A DNA stretch of 64,000 bases from a virus, in the IMG/VR virus record IMGVR_UViG_3300021956_000014, one strand, 5' to 3'. The notes beneath the pieces are model-generated. The model did not search any database. It saw only the letters and a list, made by a program, of their open reading frames with translations, and was not told where the DNA came from. Shown here piece by piece: positions 8,448-29,659 of this stretch; the stretch's first letter is position 1, and each line of letters starts with the position of its first letter. The position numbers and the translations under genes were made by a program.

Positions 8448-9167
8448 TTAGGTGACAACCACTGGATGAATATTTAATATACAGCCCGGATGTATTAGCT
8501 CTAAAAAGGTTGTGACTTTTTCGTCGTTGGCGTAAAACCAAATATTCCAAAAACCATCAAATTTTGAACTTAGCATTCGTTTGACACCCCCAGACACCTT
8601 GACTTCGTCTGTACCAAGTCCTTCTAAGTAGTTGAGCATCTGCTGTTTAGTAATAACATTACATCGCCCGTCACGCAATACAACCTTGTATTTGTAGGAA
8701 AAGTTTTTTTTGCGTATAATTACTCCGCTCTTAAGCAGGTTTTGTGTCTGCTGGTTGGCAGGACCGGATATGCCCAGGACAATGTGTCGGTATTTTGGGC
8801 CCAGCTGATCAACGATTGTTTTTAATTCGTTTTCAGTTTCGGCATAGAACTGTATTTCGGGTTCTTCAACACGAATCTTTACATTTGGATTATTGTCTTT
8901 TACAGCACGAATAACATGTAGAAGAGCCACATCAATCTTATCTAGGTTATGTGTGGATGCTCTGCCCCAATAGCCACCGGGATTAATCTGCCTAAAGTGG
9001 CGCCTTGCTGTAATAGCGGTTTCGTAGTCGGTGCTTTCCTGTACAATTCGGCCACCATAGACTTCTAGCCTCATACGGTACAGGTATTTTCCAAAAAATT
9101 GTTTTGTAGTCTCTTCGAATTTAACCGAATAATTTTTACTTTTCCAGTACGATATATCCATGCTCAT
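8448..9167 (-). CDS. hypothetical protein
   Basis: 239 aa ORF immediately downstream of clpA, 32-nt overlap. Confidence 0.45.
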   Translation of the reverse strand: MSMDISYWKSKNYSVKFEETTKQFFGKYLYRMRLEVYGGRIVQESTDYETAITARRHFRQINPGGYWGRASTHNLDKIDVALLHVIRAVKDNNPNVKIRVEEPEIQFYAETENELKTIVDQLGPKYRHIVLGISGPANQQTQNLLKSGVIIRKKNFSYKYKVVLRDGRCNVITKQQMLNYLEGLGTDEVKVSGGVKRMLSSKFDGFWNIWFYANDEKVTTFLELIHPGCILNIHPVVVT

Positions 9168-11415
9168 CTACAGTAGGGGGTGCTTCAATGCTAATGCGAC
9201 TGTCAAACGTAAATTCTGTTCCTGTCCAGTCAACAGTAATTGAACTATTAGGAGGTACACGCTCAAACAATATCTTTTTACTTAGCGGAACCTTAATTAA
9301 ATCGTTGATTTTACGACCCAGCGGCCTTGCGCCCATTTTGCTATCATAGCCAACTTCAGCTAAATGATCAACTGCGGCTTCAGTTAGTCTAATCTTAATA
9401 GATTTTTCACTTAGCAATTCGTTAACTTCGTTAATAAACTTGGCAACAACCTTCTTAATACTCAATTGATCGAGTTTATTAAATTTACAAATGCCATCTA
9501 GGCGGTTACGGAACTCAGGTCTGAAAAATTCCTTAACAGCCTTGTCGTCTTCACCAGTTTTTTCCTGTGTACCGAAGCCAATACTGTTGCGCTCGTTGTC
9601 GGCCGCTCCCAGGTTACTGGTTAGGATAATAATGGCATTACGTGCATCAGCTTTTTTGCCATTGCTGGATGTAACAGTACCTTCATCCATTAGCTGTAAC
9701 AAGACATTGCTGACATCTGGGTGTGCTTTTTCAATTTCGTCAAACAAGATAACAGCATTACTGTTCTTTTCTAAATCACTGATTAGTAATCCGCCACCAA
9801 GATTGCTGTCTTCGTAGCCTACATACCCCGGGGGCGCACCAATCAGCTTACTAGCTGAGTGCTTTTCTTGGTATTCACTCATATCATAACGTAATAGTTT
9901 CATCCCAAGGTTTTCGGCTAATAGTTTAGCCAATTCAGTTTTACCTGTACCAGTTGGTCCTAGGAACAAGAAACTGCCAATTGGCTTGTTAATACCTTTA
10001 AGTCCGGCACGACTAACATAGATGCGCTCAAGGATAGTATCAACAACTTGTTCTTGTCCATACAACTTAGCTTTAATGTTACCTTCTAGGTTGTCCAGAC
10101 TGCGTACAGTTTCAGCACCAATTTGATCTGCGGGTATTTTAGTAAACTTGCTCAGTGTATCAATGATATGGCTCTTGTTAACCACCCAATCTTTTTCTAC
10201 TAGTTTAGTTCTAGCACATGCGCTGTCAATTAAATCAATGGCCTTGTCGGGTAAACGCTTGTCTGTTTGATATCGTACACTGAGATCAACAGCACTATCA
10301 ATCGCTGAATCATCAATGACGCCGCCGTGAAACTCTTCAAAGTAGCCACGTAGGCCACGCAAAATGTCTTTGGCCACAGAAGGTGTTGGTTCTTCTACCG
10401 GTAGCCTATGGAAACGGCGCATTAGCGCACGATCCTTTTCAAAACTCTGTGTGTATTCTTCCCAAGTAGTTGATGCAATGACTTTAATCTGACCTTTGCT
10501 GAGTGCAGGTTTGATCATATTGCTAAAGTCCACACTACTTTGACTACCTGATCCGGCGCCCTGCATTTGATGTGCTTCATCAATGAACAAGATACACTTG
10601 CCACGTGCTATTAATGCTTCAATTACATCCTTGACCTTTTCTTCAAACTCACCGCGATATTTACTGCCTGCTAGGATACTACCAATGTCTAAGTTAAACA
10701 CAGTATAATCTAACAAATACTCAGGAACTTCTTTATTAAAGATATTTCTGGCCAGCCCCTCAGCAATGGCGGTCTTACCTACACCCGGATCGCCTACTAA
10801 CAAGATATTGCTTTTGTTGCGTTTGGCCAATACTTGTGCAATTTCATTAATTTCAAACTCTCGACCAATTACGGGATCGATGTTGCCTGCGGCGGCCGAC
10901 TCGCTAAGATTAGTACAATACTCGTCAAGGATATCGTGTCCTCGCATTTTCCTTGCGGCTCTAGCCTGTTTGGCTTCTTGATAGTTTTCGTTATAGAACT
11001 CAATTAGTTTTTGTCTATCAAGTCCGTACTTGAGCATGAAGTATGCGGCGTGGCTGTTAGTTTCGTTTGTGATACTCAAGAAGATATCAATAACTTGAAT
11101 GTGTGTACGCCCACTAAACAATACTTGAGTAAATGCACGATTAAACATACGCTCAAGAGCATGTGTTTTCTTTGGTTCACAACCATTTTCTTTGCTGACT
11201 AGATAAGTCTGCGACATTAAAAATGTGTGCAATTCAATGACCATGCTGTCAACATCAGCGCCAAAATTCTGGCAAAGCTCGTAAAATGGTTTATACAACA
11301 TAACCGCTTTGAGCAAGTGCTCTAAAGTCACATACTCGTGGTTAAGCTCTTTAGCTGACTTAATAGCCGAACTAACAATTACTTCAATTTCGGGATTTGG
11401 TTGTATAGTCATCAT
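9136..11415 (-). CDS. clpA: ClpA-type AAA+ unfoldase (ATP-dependent Clp protease ATP-binding subunit)
   Basis: 759 aa; Clp N-domain; two Walker A boxes (GDPGVGKTAIAEGLA, GPTGTGKTELAKLLA); KLIGAPPGYVGY; ERNSIGFG aligning with the ClpA IGL ClpP-docking loop; no ClpB middle domain. Confidence 0.9.
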   Translation of the reverse strand: MMTIQPNPEIEVIVSSAIKSAKELNHEYVTLEHLLKAVMLYKPFYELCQNFGADVDSMVIELHTFLMSQTYLVSKENGCEPKKTHALERMFNRAFTQVLFSGRTHIQVIDIFLSITNETNSHAAYFMLKYGLDRQKLIEFYNENYQEAKQARAARKMRGHDILDEYCTNLSESAAAGNIDPVIGREFEINEIAQVLAKRNKSNILLVGDPGVGKTAIAEGLARNIFNKEVPEYLLDYTVFNLDIGSILAGSKYRGEFEEKVKDVIEALIARGKCILFIDEAHQMQGAGSGSQSSVDFSNMIKPALSKGQIKVIASTTWEEYTQSFEKDRALMRRFHRLPVEEPTPSVAKDILRGLRGYFEEFHGGVIDDSAIDSAVDLSVRYQTDKRLPDKAIDLIDSACARTKLVEKDWVVNKSHIIDTLSKFTKIPADQIGAETVRSLDNLEGNIKAKLYGQEQVVDTILERIYVSRAGLKGINKPIGSFLFLGPTGTGKTELAKLLAENLGMKLLRYDMSEYQEKHSASKLIGAPPGYVGYEDSNLGGGLLISDLEKNSNAVILFDEIEKAHPDVSNVLLQLMDEGTVTSSNGKKADARNAIIILTSNLGAADNERNSIGFGTQEKTGEDDKAVKEFFRPEFRNRLDGICKFNKLDQLSIKKVVAKFINEVNELLSEKSIKIRLTEAAVDHLAEVGYDSKMGARPLGRKINDLIKVPLSKKILFERVPPNSSITVDWTGTEFTFDSRISIEAPPTVDEHGYIVLEK

Positions 11416-15092: not shown

Positions 15093-15717
15093 CTAGTACA
15101 TGGCAAGCATGGTTGTAATGTTTGATGCGATCTTCTAAGCCAATCGTACCACCGTTGATGCGTTTGGTCAGTGTTAAGATGTCACCTTTGTCTGCCCACT
15201 GGTTTAAGTTGTTGGCTTCCCAGAACCAACAGGCTGATTGTACGCAACCTTCAAATGTAGTCAAGTGCTCGCTGGCTTCTTCTACGCTGATCTCAAGACT
15301 CTGTGCATAGCGAGTATAGTTGTCTTTGCCAGTTAACTGTATTAGGCCGCGACCGCAATATCGATATCCATCGCCGGACTCTTCTGGGCCGTTGCCCATA
15401 CGGTTGGAATAGATGCGATTTGCAATAGCCTCTTGTTTGTTGGGCATAGAGCAATAGCGTTCTGCTGTAGGCAAATCAAAATACTTTTTAAACAACTGCA
15501 CCAGTGTTGCTGGTCTGTAGTTTAAGTTTTCTTTAATGGCTTTGAAGCCACCCGACTCATGAGCACATTGTGCCAAGAAGGCCGCTAGTCGTTGTGGTGT
15601 GTTTATATCATAATCTGGGCATATTTCGCATATTGCTTCATGCCAATGCTCGATATAAGGATTACCGGGTACTATTTGTTTTAATTGGTCGACTGTAAAG
15701 TCAAAATCGAATGCCAT
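15085..15717 (-). CDS. endolysin, glycoside hydrolase family 19 (chitinase-like lysozyme)
   Basis: 210 aa; FLAQCAHESGGF...YRYCGRGLIQLTGKDNY, the GH19 catalytic Glu-containing signature found in phage endolysins. Confidence 0.85.
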   Translation of the reverse strand: MAFDFDFTVDQLKQIVPGNPYIEHWHEAICEICPDYDINTPQRLAAFLAQCAHESGGFKAIKENLNYRPATLVQLFKKYFDLPTAERYCSMPNKQEAIANRIYSNRMGNGPEESGDGYRYCGRGLIQLTGKDNYTRYAQSLEISVEEASEHLTTFEGCVQSACWFWEANNLNQWADKGDILTLTKRINGGTIGLEDRIKHYNHACHVLGV

Positions 15718-16565
15718 TGCTTGTCTCCTAGGATAGCTTCAGTATTTAGCCTTCTTTGGATTAAGAATTGTTGCCACTTTATTAATTGGTCTGGTGTTAG
15801 TAAACTGTAAGCTCGACGATGTATGCTGGCTGTTAATAATTTTTTATCAGTTAACATCCTATTGTAATGTTCGTCAAAATTATCAACATCAGAATCTGCA
15901 ATGTTACAACAACTATAATATTGGGTTTTATTATACAACCGCTCGTACGTGCCGTGCCTAGACAATACAAAACTAGAATATAGATGAAACTCTGTAATTA
16001 GGTGTGGGTACCTGACATTGGTTTGAAAAAATTCTATAAAATCGCCGTAACTGTTTATTAGTTCTTTAACTGTTGCAGTATGGAACACAAAAGGAACACC
16101 TTGTGGTCCTATAACCACTGGCATTTCTACACTATAATATTTTTCAAGGAATTCTCTGCTACTGTCAAATACAGGGAACACTGGCACAGTACCGGCGGTA
16201 ACACGTTCTTGGTCGTCAAATAGTTTTGTTAAATCTAGCGGTTGTATAAACCAAGTTTTAGCATCTAGACTTATGCTCCATGGACTTTCGGCTTGCCCGG
16301 CCGCAAGCAATTTACAAAGCTGTTGGTTTTCCCATCCATTGATTCTACTTACGTAGTTCCAGTAACTATAAGGGATGATTTTAACTTTTGATTGGTGCGT
16401 ACCCCACCAGGCGGTGTCTATGAGATCTACAACATCATCCCAATCATTGACAACAACGTAAATGTTGCCAATGTCTGACTGCTGTGTATATAGTTCTATA
16501 GATCTTGCTTGAACTTGTAAGAAGTTTAATTCTTCTTGAAATACAATAGTAACTAAGTCAATCAT
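15681..16565 (-). CDS. hypothetical protein
   Basis: 294 aa ORF; no motif I can assign. Confidence 0.45.
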   Translation of the reverse strand: MIDLVTIVFQEELNFLQVQARSIELYTQQSDIGNIYVVVNDWDDVVDLIDTAWWGTHQSKVKIIPYSYWNYVSRINGWENQQLCKLLAAGQAESPWSISLDAKTWFIQPLDLTKLFDDQERVTAGTVPVFPVFDSSREFLEKYYSVEMPVVIGPQGVPFVFHTATVKELINSYGDFIEFFQTNVRYPHLITEFHLYSSFVLSRHGTYERLYNKTQYYSCCNIADSDVDNFDEHYNRMLTDKKLLTASIHRRAYSLLTPDQLIKWQQFLIQRRLNTEAILGDKQWHSILTLQSTN

Positions 16566-17154: not shown

Positions 17155-17730
17155 TTATGCCGCCGGTGCTGGTGCAGGTGCTCCTGCGGGTGCTGGTGCA
17201 GGTGCGGCAGGTGCTGGTGCTCCTGCGGCCTGACCTTGTGTTTCAATTTCGTCGGCGCCAGTTTCGTAAGCTGATTCAACGTCTTCGGCTTCTACGCTTT
17301 CGCTTTCTAATTCTAAAGATCCACGTTCAATTTCAAACATTAATTTCTTGGGCATAGTAATTTCTACTAGCCATACAGGAACTTTACCAAGTCTTGGAAC
17401 TTTGGTTCCGGGCTTGAAGTCTGTGGGCTCTTTAACTTTAACGGGATATTCTAATACGTCTTTGGTCCACTTAATTTCGCAGTCGTATTCCATTAAACGC
17501 TCTGCGCCACGTGGATCGGGCATTAGTTTGTGTGGCCACATAAATGTACAAGTAACAAAATATTTTTCGTATTTTGGTCCTACAACTAATTCACCTGCTT
17601 TCCAATTTTTAAACACATACATGTCTAGTTCGTCAAGCACACGCTCAAAATCCATGAGGGTGCTTAAAGCACTATCGCTCATATAGATATCTTTGGTGTT
17701 TTGTATTACATCTTTAATATGATTGGCCAT
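17155..17730 (-). CDS. hypothetical protein with Ala/Pro-repeat C-terminal tail
   Basis: 191 aa ending AAGAPAPAAPAPAPAGAPAPAPAA, encoded by tandem GGTGCTGGTGCAGGTGC-like DNA repeats at 17157-17230. Confidence 0.45.
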   Translation of the reverse strand: MANHIKDVIQNTKDIYMSDSALSTLMDFERVLDELDMYVFKNWKAGELVVGPKYEKYFVTCTFMWPHKLMPDPRGAERLMEYDCEIKWTKDVLEYPVKVKEPTDFKPGTKVPRLGKVPVWLVEITMPKKLMFEIERGSLELESESVEAEDVESAYETGADEIETQGQAAGAPAPAAPAPAPAGAPAPAPAA

Positions 17731-17770: not shown

Positions 17771-17980
17771 CTACGGTTGTTGTCTTTGCCATGAAATTTT
17801 GTTCCATACACGCTCATGTATCCAAAATAGGAATATTTTAGTCATTATTTCAGTAAGCGCGATTCCACTGGCTAACAACGCTTGTCCGGTGATAAGCCAA
17901 CTAATAAGAAATGTGTCAATAGTCCCAGTTACCCGCCAACTAACCGCTTTTGCTAAACTGCGTAAAGGTGTATCAACCAT
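17771..17980 (-). CDS. small membrane protein
   Basis: 69 aa with two hydrophobic helices. Confidence 0.3.
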   Translation of the reverse strand: MVDTPLRSLAKAVSWRVTGTIDTFLISWLITGQALLASGIALTEIMTKIFLFWIHERVWNKISWQRQQP

Positions 17981-18668
17981 GCTGTAATTTATTCAAAGTA
18001 GTCTGAGTTTTTTCTGTTACTACTCCAGTAATCTGAAATGTAACCCTAGGATGAAACCCAGCATTAGCGGTACAATGAGGAATGTTAGCCCAATCAAACG
18101 TAGTTATATCCCCGGCCCGCCACTGATAATAGTGATAATTACCATATTCCCAAAATTGTCCAGGAGCCCAATCAGTTAACTGTATCATTATACGCATAAC
18201 GCTTGCGGGATTGTTAGGAGCCCATTTTTGTAGTTTGTCTAAATGCAAATTCCAAACTTCACCGGGCATTTGTACATGAATACGATTCATACAATCTTCG
18301 AGGCCGAATTCGTCGCTTAACTTTTGTAGACTGCTAGGTATGCGCCAATTAAGATGCGTAATTGGTAAATCTTTACTCATACCATGTCTGATCAAATCGT
18401 ATTCTTCCATAGCAAGATCTTCTCTAGGAGCTTCTATACCCTCTCCCTTGTAACCGCGTGTAGCCCATGTTGCAGGCCTAGCATTGTCAACAATAGCACT
18501 TAAATCATCAATCCAAGTCGGTTCTACATAGCCTAAGTATTGCATGACGTCGTTGGGATTATCTTGACGCTTTGAGTCAAAATGATAATTACTTTTTGCT
18601 TTTGATGTTTCCCAGTTGCTTAACATATTACTTCTACCCTTACATCGCTTACGCCATAATTTTGCCAA
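17973..18668 (-). CDS. cupin-fold oxygenase, aspartyl/asparaginyl beta-hydroxylase (LpxO)-like
   Basis: 231 aa; PGEVWNLHLD ... DITTFDWANIPH ... spacing resembling the HxD...H iron-binding facial triad of Asp/Asn beta-hydroxylase-family 2OG oxygenases. Confidence 0.35.
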   Translation of the reverse strand: MAKLWRKRCKGRSNMLSNWETSKAKSNYHFDSKRQDNPNDVMQYLGYVEPTWIDDLSAIVDNARPATWATRGYKGEGIEAPREDLAMEEYDLIRHGMSKDLPITHLNWRIPSSLQKLSDEFGLEDCMNRIHVQMPGEVWNLHLDKLQKWAPNNPASVMRIMIQLTDWAPGQFWEYGNYHYYQWRAGDITTFDWANIPHCTANAGFHPRVTFQITGVVTEKTQTTLNKLQHG

Positions 18669-19279
18669 TATTCGTCTGACGGTATTGATATACCCAACAG
18701 TCTTGCTAGTTGACGATTTGTGTTGGCGATTTGAGTTGGGTAGTTTAACATAGCCCCGGTTATACCATCATTTTGTTTTTTAATAATCTCTGCCATAGTC
18801 CTAAGATTTTTATAGTAGAGAGCATAGTCGGGGTAGGTAATATCAAAGTGCCCACATTTAACCCACCAACCTAAACAGCTATCGTTGTCTCTATATACTA
18901 ACACCACAGGACATTCGGGCCATAGTTCTTTCAAATAATCTATGTTGTCTCGATAGCTAAAAATATGACTTTTAATAATTCGAACACCATTGCCATTGAA
19001 TGGTCTGTCAAATAATTCCTCTGCCTGTTTTCTAGTCAAAGTCGACATACTTTCGGGTAAGTCGAATTCCATGCCCGGGTCAAAGTACGCACCTAAGTGC
19101 ATTAAATCCATAGTACCACCGGCATCGTGGTAATAGGTTCTAGCATCACTGTAGTCACTGCGATCAATGTCGGAGCTATAGTAAATGTTTTTAACAACCG
19201 AGCTCCACTTAGATCCTGGTGCACCAGCTACAAAAATGTATTTCATTCTGGTTTGATCCTTTTGGCAATGGGTTGCCAA
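18620..19279 (-). CDS. P-loop-like protein, possible sulfotransferase/kinase fold
   Basis: 219 aa; KYIFVAGAPGSKWSS resembling a 5'-PSB/P-loop and VLVYRDNDSCLGWW resembling a sulfotransferase 3'-PB (RDxxxS) element; weak. Confidence 0.3.
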   Translation of the reverse strand: MATHCQKDQTRMKYIFVAGAPGSKWSSVVKNIYYSSDIDRSDYSDARTYYHDAGGTMDLMHLGAYFDPGMEFDLPESMSTLTRKQAEELFDRPFNGNGVRIIKSHIFSYRDNIDYLKELWPECPVVLVYRDNDSCLGWWVKCGHFDITYPDYALYYKNLRTMAEIIKKQNDGITGAMLNYPTQIANTNRQLARLLGISIPSDEYWQNYGVSDVRVEVIC

Positions 19280-20199
19280 GTTTGTTGCAATCTCATCATT
19301 GAGGCACGCACACCAGCTGGAGTGTGCTCATCGGGTGTGGTGTACATCATGTTTTCACGAAACTTTTCTGCCGCTTCAGCTGAGCGTATAGCGGGTACAA
19401 AACGGTCAGCATACCATTTTTGTATGTCTTGTGGCGTGCCTGGCGGTAATACTATGTTCCAACATCCGTGTATGCTAAGTCCGGGGGCGGCCTTGCTCAT
19501 TAGCGGCGCAGATTCTAATCCTGGTAAAGGCTTTGTGTCGGCAATACCAATTAGTTTTAATTTGCCGGTTAACACATGCGGATAACCCACGGCCACTGGA
19601 GTAACTCCAAATTCTACATGCCCGCCCATAACATCTAGTAACGCTTGTGCTGGTCCTTTGTACATAACGGTTTCAACCCGGTCCCCTCCGGGTACTCGTA
19701 GTTTATCCACTAGATATTCTACTGCTAATCTATGCCCACCGCCACCGATGGCAAATGTTACAGACCGTTCCTTTTTACGAATGGCCGCAATTAATTCATC
19801 GGGGGTATTGATTGTGCTCTTAGGATTTGCCCAAAATGCCAGCGGGCTTCTAGCAATATTAGCTACAGGTTCTAGGTCCATGGGATTATATTTTACCATG
19901 TTACTGTACCATATTTCGGGTGTGACCCAGTTGCTTTGACAAGCGGGTACACTTATGGTATGTCCATCTGCAGGCATAGTTACAAAGTGATTAAGAGCGA
20001 TGTTGCCATCTGCACCCGGACGATATTCGGGATTGAATTTGGCTCCAGTCTCACGCTCTACTATACTGGCTACAATGCGAAACGATATTTCGTTTCCTGC
20101 TCCGGGACCATTGGGAAATATAACGGTCACTGGCCGTGTGGGTTGCCACGCAAAAGCCAAAGCGGGAAGTAATGCCAGCAGGGCGAGAAGTTTTTTCAT
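19243..20199 (-). CDS. TctC/Bug-family periplasmic solute-binding protein (tripartite tricarboxylate transporter receptor)
   Basis: 318 aa; signal peptide MKKLLALLALLPALAFA; EYRPGADGNIA, FAIGGGGHRLAVEYL, LLDVMGGHVEFGV matching the Bug-domain pattern. Confidence 0.65.
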   Translation of the reverse strand: MKKLLALLALLPALAFAWQPTRPVTVIFPNGPGAGNEISFRIVASIVERETGAKFNPEYRPGADGNIALNHFVTMPADGHTISVPACQSNWVTPEIWYSNMVKYNPMDLEPVANIARSPLAFWANPKSTINTPDELIAAIRKKERSVTFAIGGGGHRLAVEYLVDKLRVPGGDRVETVMYKGPAQALLDVMGGHVEFGVTPVAVGYPHVLTGKLKLIGIADTKPLPGLESAPLMSKAAPGLSIHGCWNIVLPPGTPQDIQKWYADRFVPAIRSAEAAEKFRENMMYTTPDEHTPAGVRASMMRLQQTWQPIAKRIKPE

Positions 20200-20278
20200 G
20201 TAGATTTCCTTTGATTAAATACTTATAGAAAAAATTGCACTTGGTGCAAATTTATTTATCAAATAGGAAAAATTTTTA

Positions 20279-21001
20279 ATGAATACTAAAATTTTTGCAC
20301 TCTTAACAAAAAATTTGTCTGAGGCATTTAATTTACCCAAGTACGCCAACATAGTCATAGACGAAACAACTGTAGTGGATAAACTACCCTGGACTCCTGC
20401 TCGCTATCGCAAATTTAAAGATGCGGTTGAAGCAGAATTAAGTCTACCCTGCGACTACATTGGTACTCTTAAAGATATAACACATGATTTAAGTGAGCGT
20501 TATACACATCGTTTCTTTGCAGAAATCTGGAAGCCTAGAACCAACGACTACGATTATACAGGCTGGCAATTGGTTGAAGAAGTTAATCAATTGAATCCAA
20601 AATCTGTATTAGATGTAGGCTGTGGCTACCATCCTTTTAAGGGACGTATCAACAATCTAGTAGGAATCGATCCCTACAACAACTGTGCAGACTATATGGT
20701 TGACATTTTAGAATATGTTGGCAAGCACGACGTTATCATTGCCTTGGGCAGTATTAACTTTAACAGCCGCGATGAAATTGAAGCTCGTTTTGCTCGTTGT
20801 GTTAGTATACTAGAGGAAGGTGGGACATTTTTTCTAAGAGCCAATCCAGGTATTCCTCACAAAACTGGACCATACGTTGATATATTTCCATGGACATTTG
20901 AAGTAGTTAAAGAGTTTGGTGACAAGTACAACCTTAAATTGGAAACTTTTAAGAAAGATGCCAACGATAGGTTGTACTTTGTATACTCTAAATTAGTTTA
21001 A
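20279..21001 (+). CDS. class I SAM-dependent methyltransferase
   Basis: 240 aa; motif I VLDVGCGYHPF and acidic post-I residue (GIDPY); plus strand between two minus-strand tctC-like genes. Confidence 0.55.
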   Translation: MNTKIFALLTKNLSEAFNLPKYANIVIDETTVVDKLPWTPARYRKFKDAVEAELSLPCDYIGTLKDITHDLSERYTHRFFAEIWKPRTNDYDYTGWQLVEEVNQLNPKSVLDVGCGYHPFKGRINNLVGIDPYNNCADYMVDILEYVGKHDVIIALGSINFNSRDEIEARFARCVSILEEGGTFFLRANPGIPHKTGPYVDIFPWTFEVVKEFGDKYNLKLETFKKDANDRLYFVYSKLV

Positions 21002-21003
21002 GA

Positions 21004-21924
21004 TTACTTAACTTCTATGCCTTTGGTATAATATTCAAATCGTTTAGAAGTATCTGCATACCACTTAGTAAGATCTCCTGGGTTCGACATATACGCTTCC
21101 TTGCTGGCAAAATCGGTGCGATACAAAGTTTGCACAGCTTCAGCTTTCTCGGCCTTTAAGAAAATTTGTTGCAATTCATCAACCGTTGCTTGTGGTGTAT
21201 CTTTAGGAACATAAAAAGCAAAAATACCTTGCAGTTCTATCAAGTCACTGTAACCTTGCGAAGCCAGTGTAGGAATACCTAAGAATGAGGTTTTACCAGT
21301 TAAACCAATCAATGTTGTGTCCGGCATTGCTTTAGCCTTGGCATCACCTAAGAATTCAAATGTTGCATCTGTATGCCCACCCATCACACTTAAGAAGGCT
21401 TCATTAGTGCTGGCAAAGTGAACCATTTGGACATCCTTAGTAGGATATTTTTTCTTGATATCTCTGGCTAGAGCCTCTAACATTAAATGAATGGTTGATC
21501 CTGTGCCTGCGGTGGCAAAATTAATTCGATCTTGCTTGATCAATTGGTCTAATGTTTTACCTTTGGTGATCAATGCGGCTGGGCTAATAGCCATAACCAT
21601 TACAGGTTTAAACTCCGACAACTTAAAAGTTGACTCTGGATACAAGTAAGGTCGAATAAACTGTGCCGTGCTGTTAGCATATACAACAGGACCATTTTTA
21701 TATGCTAGTGCATAACGTGCGGCAATAGATCCCCCGGCACCTGGACGGTTTTCAAAGATGAATTCATATTTGGATTGATTCTTATTTGCTTCTTCAAGGA
21801 TAGCTCGTATGTAAGTTCCTTGAGTGCTAGTAGGAATCCACCCCCAAATTGCTGGTGTTTTGATTGTTTGAGCTTGCGCTACAAAACTCGCGGCGGCAAA
21901 TAAAAGCGCCAATAGCTTTTTCAT
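21004..21924 (-). CDS. TctC/Bug-family periplasmic solute-binding protein, second copy
   Basis: 306 aa; signal peptide MKKLLALLFAAASFVAQA; ENRPGAGGSIAA, ATAGTGSTIHLMLEALA, SVMGGHTDATFE (Bug-domain pattern); RBS AAGGAAAA. Confidence 0.7.
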   Translation of the reverse strand: MKKLLALLFAAASFVAQAQTIKTPAIWGWIPTSTQGTYIRAILEEANKNQSKYEFIFENRPGAGGSIAARYALAYKNGPVVYANSTAQFIRPYLYPESTFKLSEFKPVMVMAISPAALITKGKTLDQLIKQDRINFATAGTGSTIHLMLEALARDIKKKYPTKDVQMVHFASTNEAFLSVMGGHTDATFEFLGDAKAKAMPDTTLIGLTGKTSFLGIPTLASQGYSDLIELQGIFAFYVPKDTPQATVDELQQIFLKAEKAEAVQTLYRTDFASKEAYMSNPGDLTKWYADTSKRFEYYTKGIEVK

Positions 21925-22106
21925 GTGATTTTCCTTAAATTTAATAAAGTTTGTTTTCGAACTGGAATGTATGCCCCTTTGGCATCAGTGCTGGCCTAAC
22001 TGAACAGCTAGGCAGACTAATATTTAGTCAAGTTGTAAAAAGAAAAACACATAGTTAATTCAGAATGTGACCTCTCGTTAAATACCTTTGTAAACAACAT
22101 TAAATT

Positions 22107-28474: not shown

Positions 28475-29659
28475 TTACCTCCAATACTGCTTGAATTCTG
28501 GAACCACTTCCAGTACGCTTTCGTTTCTAAGTTGATCTAATTTATCGGTAAACCGACAGGTTTCGTGCCACGAACCAATTGGTGCCTCTGACATGTAACT
28601 GATAATACCATCCGCTCTTGTTTGTTGTTCTTTGTAACGACTGCAAGACAGTAATCGTTGACCAGCTAGATCTTTTAATTCCTGTGGTAAGTTTTTAATG
28701 TTTAACTGTGCTGGAAAATGGCAAACAGTCAAGTCAATGGGATCGAATGTGTTTCCATTGGCGTAGGCAAAATCCAGCATCTTGTCAAGGTACAGTACAT
28801 TGTAAACGCTGACCACACAATTGAACTTGATCTTTACTCCGGGAAATTGTCGGACTGTTTCGATGTTGCGTAATAGCAAGCTCCAGTCTAAACCCGAGCG
28901 TATGTATTCTCCCAGTTGTTCCGTAGCATCTACACTGACAATGAACAACACATTGGAAAAATGCTGTAAGTAATCTTCTAGTCGGTGCTGACCAAACTGT
29001 AGCTTGGTCAGGTTGGTTGTGTAGGTTAGGCGTATGTCTGTTAGTCCCAACTCTATTAGGCGATCCAATAACTCCCAGTGTTCTTGCTGGAATAAACTTT
29101 CGCCGCCGGCAAAGTAAACTTCTTTTAGTTGACTGAGATCTCCATAGCGCAACATATCAACTTGTTCGTTGAGTGCATGGATAACATAGTTGGTCCGTGG
29201 CTCGCGGTTATAGACTGCTACAGAGTCTGTACCCCAACTATGGCTATAGTCTGGACCGCACATACGACATTTTAAGTTACAGATGTTTGAAAAACGAATG
29301 TCCCAATACTGTAGTGCAAAGTCTTGTAAATAACCGTCGGCTGAAGTTTTGGCCAACAGTCCGTCGACATCAATATTTAAATGATCTATGTCTTGATTTT
29401 TAGCAGTACGGAAACTAGGAAGTCCGTGGGACTCTTCTTTATAACAACCTGCACAGGCCCGCGGCTGGTTACCGGCTAACATTTCTGTACGCACACGGCG
29501 CATGGCCTCTGTGTTTGCTACAGAGCCAGCATCGGTAAAGTCTTGTATGTTACCAAAGTTGCCTTGAGCCGCACAGCAAGGTTTTATTTTGCCCGTTGGA
29601 TCATGGAAGAAATGTATCCAAGGTAAAATACAAAACGTCTTACTGGGCAGGTTGCTCAT
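28475..29659 (-). CDS. radical SAM protein with extra N- and C-terminal Cys clusters
   Basis: 394 aa; CNLKCRMCGP (CxxxCxxC); additional N-terminal Cys cluster (residues 10, 28, 29, 68, 71) and C-terminal Cys residues; 1-nt gap to the cupin gene. Confidence 0.6.
   Translation of the reverse strand: MSNLPSKTFCILPWIHFFHDPTGKIKPCCAAQGNFGNIQDFTDAGSVANTEAMRRVRTEMLAGNQPRACAGCYKEESHGLPSFRTAKNQDIDHLNIDVDGLLAKTSADGYLQDFALQYWDIRFSNICNLKCRMCGPDYSHSWGTDSVAVYNREPRTNYVIHALNEQVDMLRYGDLSQLKEVYFAGGESLFQQEHWELLDRLIELGLTDIRLTYTTNLTKLQFGQHRLEDYLQHFSNVLFIVSVDATEQLGEYIRSGLDWSLLLRNIETVRQFPGVKIKFNCVVSVYNVLYLDKMLDFAYANGNTFDPIDLTVCHFPAQLNIKNLPQELKDLAGQRLLSCSRYKEQQTRADGIISYMSEAPIGSWHETCRFTDKLDQLRNESVLEVVPEFKQYWR

Follow-up and report, generated by a model that had tools for sequence, protein, structure and literature searches.

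A phage lineage of TctC/Bug-family binding proteins translationally coupled to a putative sulfotransferase in uncultured large phages

Described receptors and the phage locus

The orphan Bug/TctC receptors, among them BugD, BugE, Bug27, AdpC and TphC, have counterparts in two proteins, here called Bug-1 and Bug-2, that are encoded on a 64-kb stretch of DNA (64,000 nucleotides, the window). The cellular and phage proteins agree in Pfam family, length and possession of a signal peptide; full-length alignment indicates a common two-lobe type II SBP architecture, and both kinds of gene often lack an adjacent TctA/TctB and lie beside enzymes. Orphan status is common among accepted Bug proteins. The differences are that Bug-1 and Bug-2 are phage-encoded and that their ligand pincers are altered; the Bug-1 clade has P-G-S-G-N-E in place of the near-universal P-F-x-A-G-G-x-x-D, and a shortened pincer 2, while pincer 1 of Bug-2 reads S-T-Q-G-x-Y-x-R.

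To our knowledge, PstS is essentially the only solute-binding protein described from phages, and it is host-like and stand-alone. Cyanophage PstS is a virus-encoded periplasmic phosphate-binding protein without a permease of its own, and is presumed to use the host transporter (PMC12713726). It is of the ABC class, whereas the phage Bug proteins are of the secondary TTT family; and Bug-1, unlike PstS, is without a close cellular homologue, shares an operon with tailoring enzymes and is accompanied by TctA in relatives. Matches to a tctA domain have been recorded as 'AMG' on contigs of SUP05 viruses, their role being stated as unknown (PMC4164917), but these concern the membrane subunit alone, whereas the Bug-1 module has a binding protein at its core, a full-length TctA in some relatives and a defined gene partnership. 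Sulfotransfer_3 genes in OM43 phages and Synechococcus phage S-SRM01, together with viral cysC, have also been noted, and the function of the sulfotransferases is described as unclear (PMC10580990; PMC12713726). The literature that we found on these genes reports no linkage to a transporter component, and the module sulfotransferase differs from them in being compact (208 aa), below the Pfam threshold and translationally coupled to a secreted TctC. Lastly, SlcHFG is a TTT system for 3-sulfolactate, which places organosulfur anions, beyond di-/tricarboxylates, within TTT reach (PMC5812351); we liken it to the phage module by description. Unlike the module, it belongs to cells, serves catabolism and has all three components. 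Our search of the literature found no report of a phage TctC, nor of a link between TctC and a sulfotransferase.

The window is phage DNA. It carries an endolysin, a tail-fibre-like gene, PhoH, a ligase and a Clp ATPase of jumbo-phage type, whose affinity is with jumbo phages of diverse hosts, and its relatives are IMG/VR contigs of up to 383 kb; there are no tRNAs in the window. Megablast of the region against deposited phages (INPHARED) gave no near match, and at the protein level the same collection yielded one weak match to Bug-1 and none to Bug-2. PHROGs holds no family for Bug-1, Bug-2, the sulfotransferase, the methyltransferase or the oxygenase, and an NCBIfam scan of the module proteins returned nothing useful.

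A preliminary description of this DNA had reported two proteins of about 310 aa on either side of a divergent methyltransferase, with sulfotransferase-like and Asp-hydroxylase-like genes upstream. The three reading frames (318, 306 and 240 aa) lie exactly where it placed them. The two enzyme genes are indeed nearby, but they are downstream of Bug-1, in its overlapping operon (ATGA and ATGTTAA junctions), in which the order is Bug-1, sulfotransferase, putative Fe/2OG oxygenase and DUF2061, the putative class I methyltransferase (MT) being divergent. The features are as follows.

17771..17980, minus strand: small DUF2061 protein of 69 aa, predicted to lie in the membrane; overlaps the oxygenase-like gene at the latter's end; the identical gene of the related locus L051 matches PF09834
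17973..18626, minus strand: 'AspH-like' protein of 217 aa, putative Fe(II)/2-oxoglutarate oxygenase; the gene's start (true start 18626) and the sulfotransferase stop overlap in ATGTTAA
18620..19246, minus strand: putative sulfotransferase, 208 aa; an ATGA overlap of the Bug-1 stop with its start (true start 19246) couples the two translationally
19243..20199, minus strand: Bug-1, 318 aa, a periplasmic solute-binding protein of the TctC/Bug family; its gene opens the operon
20200..20278, unstranded: divergent intergenic region of 79 bp
20279..21001, plus strand: putative class I SAM-dependent methyltransferase, 240 aa; motif I VLDVGCGY invariant
21002..22070, unstranded: block of about 1.07 kb comprising Bug-2 and its 5' region
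21004..21924, minus strand: Bug-2, second TctC/Bug-family binding protein, of another subfamily, 306 aa

Two exported binding proteins of different origin

Membership of the TctC/Bug family, as first proposed, is borne out by a profile search, in which PF03401 scored 75.1 bits with Bug-1 and 59.0 bits with Bug-2 against a gathering score of 27 bits. By sequence, both align over most or all of their length with solved Bug/TTT proteins (e.g. 2DVZ, 5OEI, 7NDR, 8HKA). Residues 19-308 of Bug-1, which matched 11 PDB sequences in all, can be aligned with residues 16-301 of 2DVZ, and residues 41-268 of Bug-2, whose PDB matches are terephthalate-binding TTT proteins, with 8HKA. Purifying selection acts on both: dN/dS is 0.05 for Bug-1 (against L012) and about 0.05 for Bug-2 (against L010, with dS saturated). 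The elements that bear on export and ligand binding are listed here.

20149..20199, minus strand: predicted Sec-type signal peptide of Bug-1, aa 1-17, MKKLLALLALLPALAFA, cleavage before W18 (MKKLLALLALLPALAFA-WQ); manual reading, conserved across the clade
20089..20118, minus strand: first pincer loop of Bug-1, F-P-N-G-P-G-A-G-N-E, placed by alignment to 2DVZ; a variant of the canonical motif
19732..19746, minus strand: second pincer of Bug-1, GGGGH
21871-21924, minus strand: predicted Sec-type signal peptide of Bug-2, aa 1-18, MKKLLALLFAAASFVAQA, cleavage MKKLLALLFAAASFVAQA-QT; manual reading

On manual reading both N-termini comprise an MKK n-region, a hydrophobic core and an AxA-type site, and neither has a lipobox Cys or a twin-Arg. 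The cleavable signal peptides of the preliminary description are not artefacts of a wrongly chosen start, because a strong ribosome-binding site, AAGGA, stands 7-8 nt 5' of the ATG in both genes and both N-termini are conserved across dozens of homologues.

The canonical beta1-alpha1 pincer, P-F-x-A-G-G-x-x-D, holds carboxylate-bridging waters, and some accepted Bug proteins likewise deviate at this position (PMC5812351). Its AGGxxD is missing both from Bug-1 (P-N-G-P-G-A-G-N-E; clade signature PG[SA]GNExxFR) and from Bug-2 (I-P-T-S-T-Q-G-T-Y; family signature WG[WF]xPxSTQGxYxR, together with a canonical AGTGSxxH), each variant being conserved within its own clade, so that classic carboxylate binding is not assured. 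The second pincer is the beta7-alpha7 turn, which is of GxGSxxH type as read from Bug-2, the Bug-2 family and the aligned solved proteins. AGTGSTIH in Bug-2 fits this type; the GxGxxxH signature once ascribed to both proteins is present in Bug-2 (GTGSTIH) but not in Bug-1, where GGGGH is two residues shorter.

At 80-88% identity Bug-1 has over 120 cluster representatives as relatives, and those of their contigs that were examined are phage-like. When 185,579 cellular genomes were searched with six Bug-1 octapeptide patterns no relative was found, and the sole match to the clade signature in that set was a mis-binned phage contig in a Haliscomenobacter MAG; no near-identical cellular gene was thus found for Bug-1 in these genomes, and the clade is apparently restricted to phages. 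GC3 is typical for the phage, and recent capture from a host can be rejected on these grounds.

Bug-2 has a separate history. It is 27% identical to Bug-1, belongs to a different subfamily and is an insertion; the closest relative, L012, is without the Bug-2 block and has PhoH directly after the MT gene. The two are consequently not recent duplicates. Both Bug genes are real as first reported, they are not a pair, and the interpretation first given for them is supported in part. A protein of about 390 aa ('F1') that partners Bug-2-type genes offers an SGGxDS motif alone, with no Pfam or PDB match.

Operon enzymes and conservation of the module

We assign the sulfotransferase fold to the 208-aa product. 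Its own match to PF13469 (E=0.073, 13.7 bits) is under the 27-bit cutoff, and a Foldseek search of its model against the PDB gave nothing significant, with generic P-loop kinases on top. Across its family, weak matches to Sulfotransfer_1/2/3 occur in 15 of 21 members (best 1.6e-4), and a BFVD homologue carries the automatic name 'Sulfotransferase family'. A G-x-P-G-S-[KR]-W-S loop after strand 1 is invariant, as are H94 and R119, while K92, S93 and D122 are nearly so; in the family alignment, these residues are compatible with a 5'-phosphosulfate-binding loop and catalytic residues. IMG/VR holds at least 546 relatives of this protein, and metagenomes contain some one to four thousand relatives of every protein in the module.

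The evidence that the 217-aa protein is an oxygenase is weak: H128-x-D130...H184...R194 is invariant, there is a weak profile match to AtsK (E=0.14), one of 19 family members matches PF05118 (0.002), and hhalign against a PF05118 protein returned a probability of 26%; a single-sequence AF2 model had a pLDDT of 30. For the MT family, weak below-threshold matches were obtained to Methyltransf_23 (17 of 18 members) and Methyltransf_25 (14 of 18), and the PDB profile match is 1WZN (E=0.22). DUF2061 is found near the module in 11 loci; it abuts an APS kinase in L016 and stands between APS kinase and TctA in L047.

The intergenic region contains the inverted repeat TTGCAC-TTG-GTGCAA at 20235-20249, one base from the position originally reported. 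It is identical in L012 and L026, and L035 and L043 have other inverted repeats in its place, a suggestive conservation of position across these sequences. The palindrome is not statistically unusual, since at least one match at up to one mismatch arose in 36 of 100 shuffles, and a promoter scan of the region did no better than shuffles; its status as a significant element is without statistical support.

Bug-1 is directly upstream of the sulfotransferase in 61 of 67 sulfotransferase loci, the oxygenase-like gene is present in 66 and MT in 58, and the pairing of Bug-1 with the sulfotransferase is kept where identity has fallen to 30%, where the surrounding genes are unrelated and where the gene order is permuted. 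At five exceptional loci a full TctA permease and a TctC-like protein replace Bug-1 in the same slot. TctA occurs within the module in L086/87/89/91/93, L047 and L090, which argues for transport. In 26 of the 67 loci an APS kinase (PF01583) is encoded no more than 4 kb away, and it is directly adjacent in L015, L017, L018 and L047, the last of which unites Sulfotransfer_2, APS kinase, DUF2061, TctA, two binding proteins and the sulfotransferase in a single cluster. Since a single broad group of phages supplies most of the loci sampled, common descent accounts for part of this co-occurrence. The window has no TctA-sized multi-TM ORF, no TctB, in agreement with the preliminary description, and no APS kinase, and TctB was recognised nowhere in the window or in the relatives' loci; function in the present phage would therefore depend on host machinery.

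A proposed function and its alternatives

We propose that Bug-1 is a TTT uptake receptor coupled to phage sulfation chemistry and that Bug-2 is a separately acquired accessory receptor, a reading to which we give a probability of about 0.5. Bug-1 would be a secreted, functional receptor of the TTT family, made by the phage in the periplasm of the infected cell, where it would capture a small anionic solute and hand it to a TctA-type permease, that of the host in the present phage and a phage-encoded one in some relatives. The co-translated cytoplasmic enzymes, a PAPS-dependent sulfotransferase and the putative Fe/2OG oxygenase, may act in the same pathway together with the divergent methyltransferase, and the imported solute would be either the acceptor for sulfation or a feeder of sulfation chemistry. 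Bug-2, acquired independently and inserted beside the module, probably widens the range of solutes taken up by the infected cell. What the sequences show is family membership, export signals, purifying selection, coupling in an operon, the apparent confinement of the Bug-1 clade to phages and its co-occurrence with sulfotransferase, APS kinase and TctA; that transport takes place, that the host has a TctA(B) to match, in what order the pathway runs and on which substrate are our inferences. The Bug-1 clade and its sulfotransferase, with TctA in some relatives, point to a previously undescribed virus-encoded uptake-plus-sulfation module. More speculatively, the phage TTT lineage with its re-tooled pincer (PGSGNE for AGGxxD), its sulfotransferases, APS kinase and sometimes phage TctA could amount to a complete virus-encoded 'import and sulfate' pathway, through which an infected cell would come to produce a sulfated metabolite; sulfur oxyanions, organosulfur compounds and phenolic acids are candidates for what it might take up.

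It is possible, though we think it unlikely, that both Bug proteins are independent auxiliary scavengers of carboxylates for carbon or energy, in the manner of PstS, and that the adjacent enzymes reflect inherited gene order and not a shared pathway. Phage binding proteins working on host permeases have a precedent in PstS (PMC12713726), related phages supply most of the loci examined, Bug-2 stands alone as a moron-like insertion, and the region is mosaic, with 60% identity to L012 in the sulfotransferase against 92% in Bug-1. Such independence is difficult to reconcile with the maintenance of stop/start overlaps, with a pairing that persists through divergence, changed surroundings and permuted order, with the exact substitution of Bug-1 by TctA and a TctC-like protein, and with the joining of TTT and sulfation genes in the L047 cluster.

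Roles in the periplasm other than transport strike us as improbable, whether as decoys that sequester (an idea of the preliminary description), in superinfection exclusion or in signalling to sensor kinases of the host. Sensing has a parallel in Bordetella, where BctC signals through BctE. The bctDE two-component system lies upstream of bctCBA (PMC5812351), and the window without a permease and the altered canonical pincers of Bug-1 and Bug-2 would suit a non-transporting protein; yet TctA is directly inside the module in relatives, strong purifying selection over the whole protein and two lobes that are both retained are what a working SBP would have, and nothing in our data links the module to exclusion functions. 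There is still less to recommend the idea that the sulfotransferase, the Asp/Asn-hydroxylase-like oxygenase and the methyltransferase act after translation on a protein and not on a small molecule, be it the co-translated precursor of Bug-1 or some other exported product, for which it can be said that tyrosylprotein sulfotransferases are the closest structural neighbours predicted for the modelled sulfotransferase. That the region is a bacterial genomic island or assembly chimera bearing ordinary cellular Bug genes is scarcely credible, for although one relative was deposited in a Haliscomenobacter MAG and deposited phages gave no megablast match, that contig is syntenic with the window over phage genes, no cellular genome has the Bug-1 clade signature, and the phage genes of the window and its large IMG/VR relatives speak directly against it.

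A TctC receptor and a sulfotransferase thus form a conserved, translationally coupled unit in very abundant uncultured large phages. Two vague 'AMG' annotations give way to a single concrete and testable hypothesis, that phages reprogramme the uptake and sulfation of a specific solute. The TTT transporters are a poorly characterised family, and a subfamily in which the ligand pincer is altered could broaden the chemistry known for them. If true, the 'import and sulfate' pathway would represent a novel type of metabolic module in viruses, one that is common among large phages of the environment.

Family, pincers and origin of the two Bug proteins

Bug-1 and Bug-2 are members of the TctC/Bug family of TTT transporter binding proteins, as orphans with non-canonical pincers (the two ligand-gripping loops), and their reading frames, like that of the 240-aa gene between them, lie exactly where the preliminary description had placed them.

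Features of the window
9136-11415, ClpA/ClpB-like ATPase (phrog_4871, E=3e-239)
15681-16565, DUF6492 protein (PF20102, 33.9 bits), between module and endolysin
17155-17730, 191-aa protein with a C-terminal Pro/Ala-rich low-complexity tail, …APAPAAPAPAPAGAPAPAPAA
17771-17980, DUF2061 small membrane protein
ATG at 18626, putative oxygenase-like gene
ATG at 19246, likely sulfotransferase gene
19243-20199, (-), Bug-1, 318 aa
20279-21001, (+), class I methyltransferase, 240 aa, between Bug-1 and Bug-2
21004-21924, (-), Bug-2, 306 aa
22107-24478 and 28475-29659, PhoH, SPASM/radical-SAM, NT5C-like 5'-nucleotidase-family and second radical-SAM genes, adjoining the module

Both proteins exceed the PF03401 (TctC) gathering score of 27 (75.1 bits for Bug-1, 59.0 bits for Bug-2) and can be aligned with TTT binding proteins of solved structure (BugE, AdpC, TphC, Bug27, BugD and terephthalate-binding proteins), the alignment spanning all of Bug-1 and residues 41-268 of Bug-2. 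Each reads as having a Sec-type signal peptide, cleaved between …ALAFA and WQ in Bug-1 and between …VAQA and QT in Bug-2, with neither a lipobox nor a twin arginine. Because AAGGA stands 7-8 nt 5' of each ATG and the N-termini are kept among homologs, these signal peptides are genuine rather than artefacts of start choice. The earlier assignment stands as regards both family and export. Strong purifying selection acts on both genes (Bug-1 against L012, the closest related contig: dN/dS 0.05, dS 1.28; Bug-2 against the viral contig L010: dN/dS about 0.05, with dS saturated). Neither matches a PHROG family, and among deposited phages Bug-1 has a single weak match and Bug-2 none.

Searched exhaustively, 1.84 billion representatives yielded only 68 at E<=1e-30 to Bug-1; weaker matches can no longer be told apart from the Bug family at large (35,097 at E<=1e-3). 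The top ~60 representatives share a mature N-terminus of A-W-[QE]-P-x-[KR]-P and a pincer 1 of P-G-[SA]-G-N-E-x-x-F-R, where canonical Bug proteins have Y-P-x-[KR]-P and P-F-x-A-G-G-x-x-D; this last motif is described as almost ubiquitous in a TTT review, and its backbone holds a pair of water molecules bridging to the carboxylate of the ligand (PMC5812351). Pincer 2 of Bug-1 (GGGGH) is two residues shorter than the canonical-looking pincer 2 of Bug-2 (GTGSTIH), in which it is pincer 1 that is replaced, by S-T-Q-G-x-Y-x-R.

The preliminary description had likened both proteins to orphan receptors of Betaproteobacteria and proposed a check of such hosts for near-identical genes. Among 185,579 species-representative genomes, six Bug-1 octapeptides found zero relatives and the clade signature occurs at one locus, a 62.5-kb MAG contig labelled 'Haliscomenobacter sp.' (L050, NZ_JBBAKG010000036.1). 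Since synteny between this contig and the window extends across PhoH, methyltransferase, Bug-1, sulfotransferase, endolysin and Clp ATPase, we regard the contig as phage DNA mis-binned into a bacterial MAG. With no true cellular clade member among these genomes, and with GC3 in both genes typical of the phage, the data do not support a recent acquisition from a Betaproteobacterial host; the Bug-1 clade is apparently distinct and phage-restricted. The GC content of L050, 46.9%, is close to the value for Haliscomenobacter, at best a weak hint of the host.

Bug-1 and Bug-2 are 27% identical, fall in different subfamilies and do not form a pair. Bug-2 and its 5' region make up a 1.07-kb insertion (about 21002-22070) between methyltransferase and PhoH, missing in L012 and nearly all other relatives. 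Bug-2-type genes are also found on other viral contigs in different contexts, frequently adjoining a ~380-400-aa family (F1) with an invariant SGGxDS, PP-loop-like motif (L009, L010/L011, L036, L055, L057, L059, L063, L065), which has no Pfam or PDB sequence match and is absent from the window. At L063:6844-11584 the two alternate in tandem, as F1-Bug-Bug-F1-Bug.

Linkage of Bug-1 to a probable sulfotransferase

Our key finding is that Bug-1 is locked, in gene order across relatives, to the gene that follows it. This gene, previously called sulfotransferase-like, truly starts at ATG 19246 (MKYIFVAGAPGSKW, conserved in all homologs), which overlaps the Bug-1 TGA as ATGA; its TAA overlaps the ATG of the oxygenase-like gene as ATGTTAA, and the end of that gene is overlapped by the DUF2061 gene. 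The sulfotransferase lies immediately 3' of Bug-1 in about 42 of the 45 loci found through Bug-1. Sulfotransferase relatives number at least 546 in IMG/VR, and in the reverse direction, at 67 evaluable loci found independently via the sulfotransferase, a Bug-1-clade gene stands directly upstream on the same strand in 61, a 4-nt overlap being the commonest junction (27 loci); 66/67 have the oxygenase-like gene, 58/67 the methyltransferase and 26/67 an APS kinase <=4 kb away. The pairing is more than inherited synteny, because it is kept at about 30% identity in L045/46/48, contigs with one other gene in common with the window, beside a DNA ligase in L047, and in permuted order in L064, where methyltransferase, sulfotransferase and Bug follow one another on a single strand and overlap at their junctions.

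That the product is a sulfotransferase we consider likely: 15 of the 21 family members give weak Sulfotransfer_3 matches, none reaching the Pfam threshold, and a 59%-identical BFVD protein is annotated 'Sulfotransferase family', while Foldseek against the PDB returned nothing significant. In related phages a 375-aa gene opening MNVLILTPDRVGSTLL (L001:13035-14162(-)) lies beside an APS kinase (L001:14186-14980) about 2-3 kb downstream of the module; its opening is possibly a further sulfotransferase PSB loop. The methyltransferase family has an invariant VLDVGCGY, weak matches to Methyltransf_23 (17/18 members) and Methyltransf_25 (14/18), and a SAM-dependent methyltransferase as best PDB profile match. 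The third operon gene may encode an oxygenase-like enzyme, conserving H-x-D…H…R and weakly matching AtsK (TauD family) and an Asp/Arg-hydroxylase-family phage protein; this assignment is tentative because the single-sequence structure model failed.

The palindrome TTGCAC-TTG-GTGCAA reported in the divergent intergenic region is present, at 20235-20249 rather than 20236-20250. Its occurrence is within chance expectation, only L012 and L026 carry it unaltered, and a σ70 scan of the intergenic region scored no better than shuffles. At the corresponding site, with conserved sequence on either side, L035 and L043 have other inverted repeats (TTTGTGT-AGAA-ACACAAA; TTTTGC-GATAT-GCAAAA), a pattern compatible with a candidate small hairpin or operator that overlaps the promoter region of Bug-1 and is retained despite sequence turnover.

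Variable composition of the module

Six of the 67 sulfotransferase loci lack Bug-1, and in five of these (L086, L087, L089, L091, L093) the slot upstream of the sulfotransferase holds a TctA permease and a 350-aa secreted protein.

Features of related loci
L086:1447-2901, also L087, L089, L091, L093, L090; L047:7485-8942, phage TctA, directly upstream of the module sulfotransferase
L047:5926-11673, one strand, Sulfotransfer_2, APS kinase, DUF2061, TctA, TctC-like, Bug-1-clade TctC and coupled sulfotransferase, in that order
L016:13021-13224; L047:7240-7485, DUF2061 small membrane protein
L013:6448-7017, L019, L021, L024/25, L041; L086:896-1447; L075, glutamine amidotransferase / peptidase C26 homolog

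The TctA of those five loci is full-length (PF01970, E=2.6e-84, 12 predicted TM), and the secreted protein's N-terminal lobe aligns to the Bug-1 clade with an hhalign probability of 95.7%; TctB was not recognised at TctA-bearing loci. The phage TctA proteins score up to 284 bits, and each is followed by such a ~350-aa secreted protein with a TctC-resembling N-lobe. In L047 the Sulfotransfer_2 enzyme scores 38 bits, above threshold, and TctA 264 bits; the adjoining ligase is homologous to that of the window. Given the TctA loci and L047, the module in this phage group is a variable mix of TTT parts and sulfation enzymes, of which the window carries a minimal form: receptor, sulfotransferase, oxygenase-like gene, DUF2061 and divergent methyltransferase. 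APS kinase is absent from the window and so, throughout, is TctA, which bears out the earlier remark that the Bug genes lack this partner. DUF2061 accompanies the module in 11 loci, abutting APS kinase in L016 and having, in L047, APS kinase on one side and TctA on the other; it might be a small membrane subunit that takes the place of TctB. In several loci a homolog of class-I glutamine amidotransferase / peptidase C26 lies between Bug-1 and sulfotransferase; elsewhere it stands upstream of TctA, together with an AurF/RNR-small-subunit-like di-iron protein. The 191-aa protein is a kept neighbour of the module in many relatives, and the DUF6492 gene is kept in L012 and L035.

A proposed mechanism and its rivals

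The most likely mechanism, with a probability of about 0.5, is a TTT uptake receptor coupled to a phage sulfation pathway. After export to the infected cell's periplasm, Bug-1 would bind a small anionic solute and pass it on to a TctA permease, which here would come from the host but in some relatives is phage-encoded. In the cytoplasm the co-translated sulfotransferase would act in the same pathway along with the oxygenase-like enzyme and the methyltransferase, drawing PAPS from an APS kinase of phage or host. The analysis establishes family membership, export signals, selection, operon layout and gene co-occurrence; that transport takes place, that the host is compatible, the sequence of steps and the substrate are what we infer. 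The altered pincers leave room for a non-carboxylate ligand, perhaps a sulfur oxyanion or organosulfur anion, a precedent being SlcHFG, the TTT system for sulfolactate (PMC5812351).

The nearest rival is that these are independent nutrient-scavenging AMGs, which would suit the separately inserted Bug-2 better than the persistent pairing of Bug-1. Periplasmic signalling, or the decoy role raised in the preliminary description, is a less likely rival, against which the permeases of related loci argue. Less likely still is protein modification by a TPST-like enzyme, acting on Bug-1 or another exported protein. Weakest is the view that the region is not phage: the window encodes a GH19 endolysin (phrog_181, E=1.8e-75), a tail-fibre-like protein, PhoH, an ATP-dependent DNA ligase, two radical-SAM proteins and a Clp-type ATPase whose best matches are the jumbo phages Phosso, Atu_ph07, PA5oct and RaK2. 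Bug-1 relatives are carried by 38 viral contigs of IMG/VR, some as long as 300-383 kb, and L012, with a 92% identical Bug-1, keeps synteny with the window through a dozen genes; the window has zero tRNA genes and no nucleotide match to 50,697 deposited phages. The source is an uncultured large phage, probably a jumbo phage. Relatives further encode DnaJ and a Cpn10-like protein (L005:16310-19415), which with the ATPase form a chaperone set typical of jumbo phages. The samples are presumably freshwater.

In the searchable literature neither a phage TctC nor a link between TTT components and sulfotransferases came up; the reports there are limited to a tctA domain match in SUP05 viruses (PMC4164917), phage sulfotransferases whose function is unclear (PMC10580990) and viral cysC (PMC12713726). 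By analogy the Bug proteins would act like cyanophage PstS, a viral receptor using a host permease, but they differ in transporter class, in having no close cellular homolog and in their enzyme operon.
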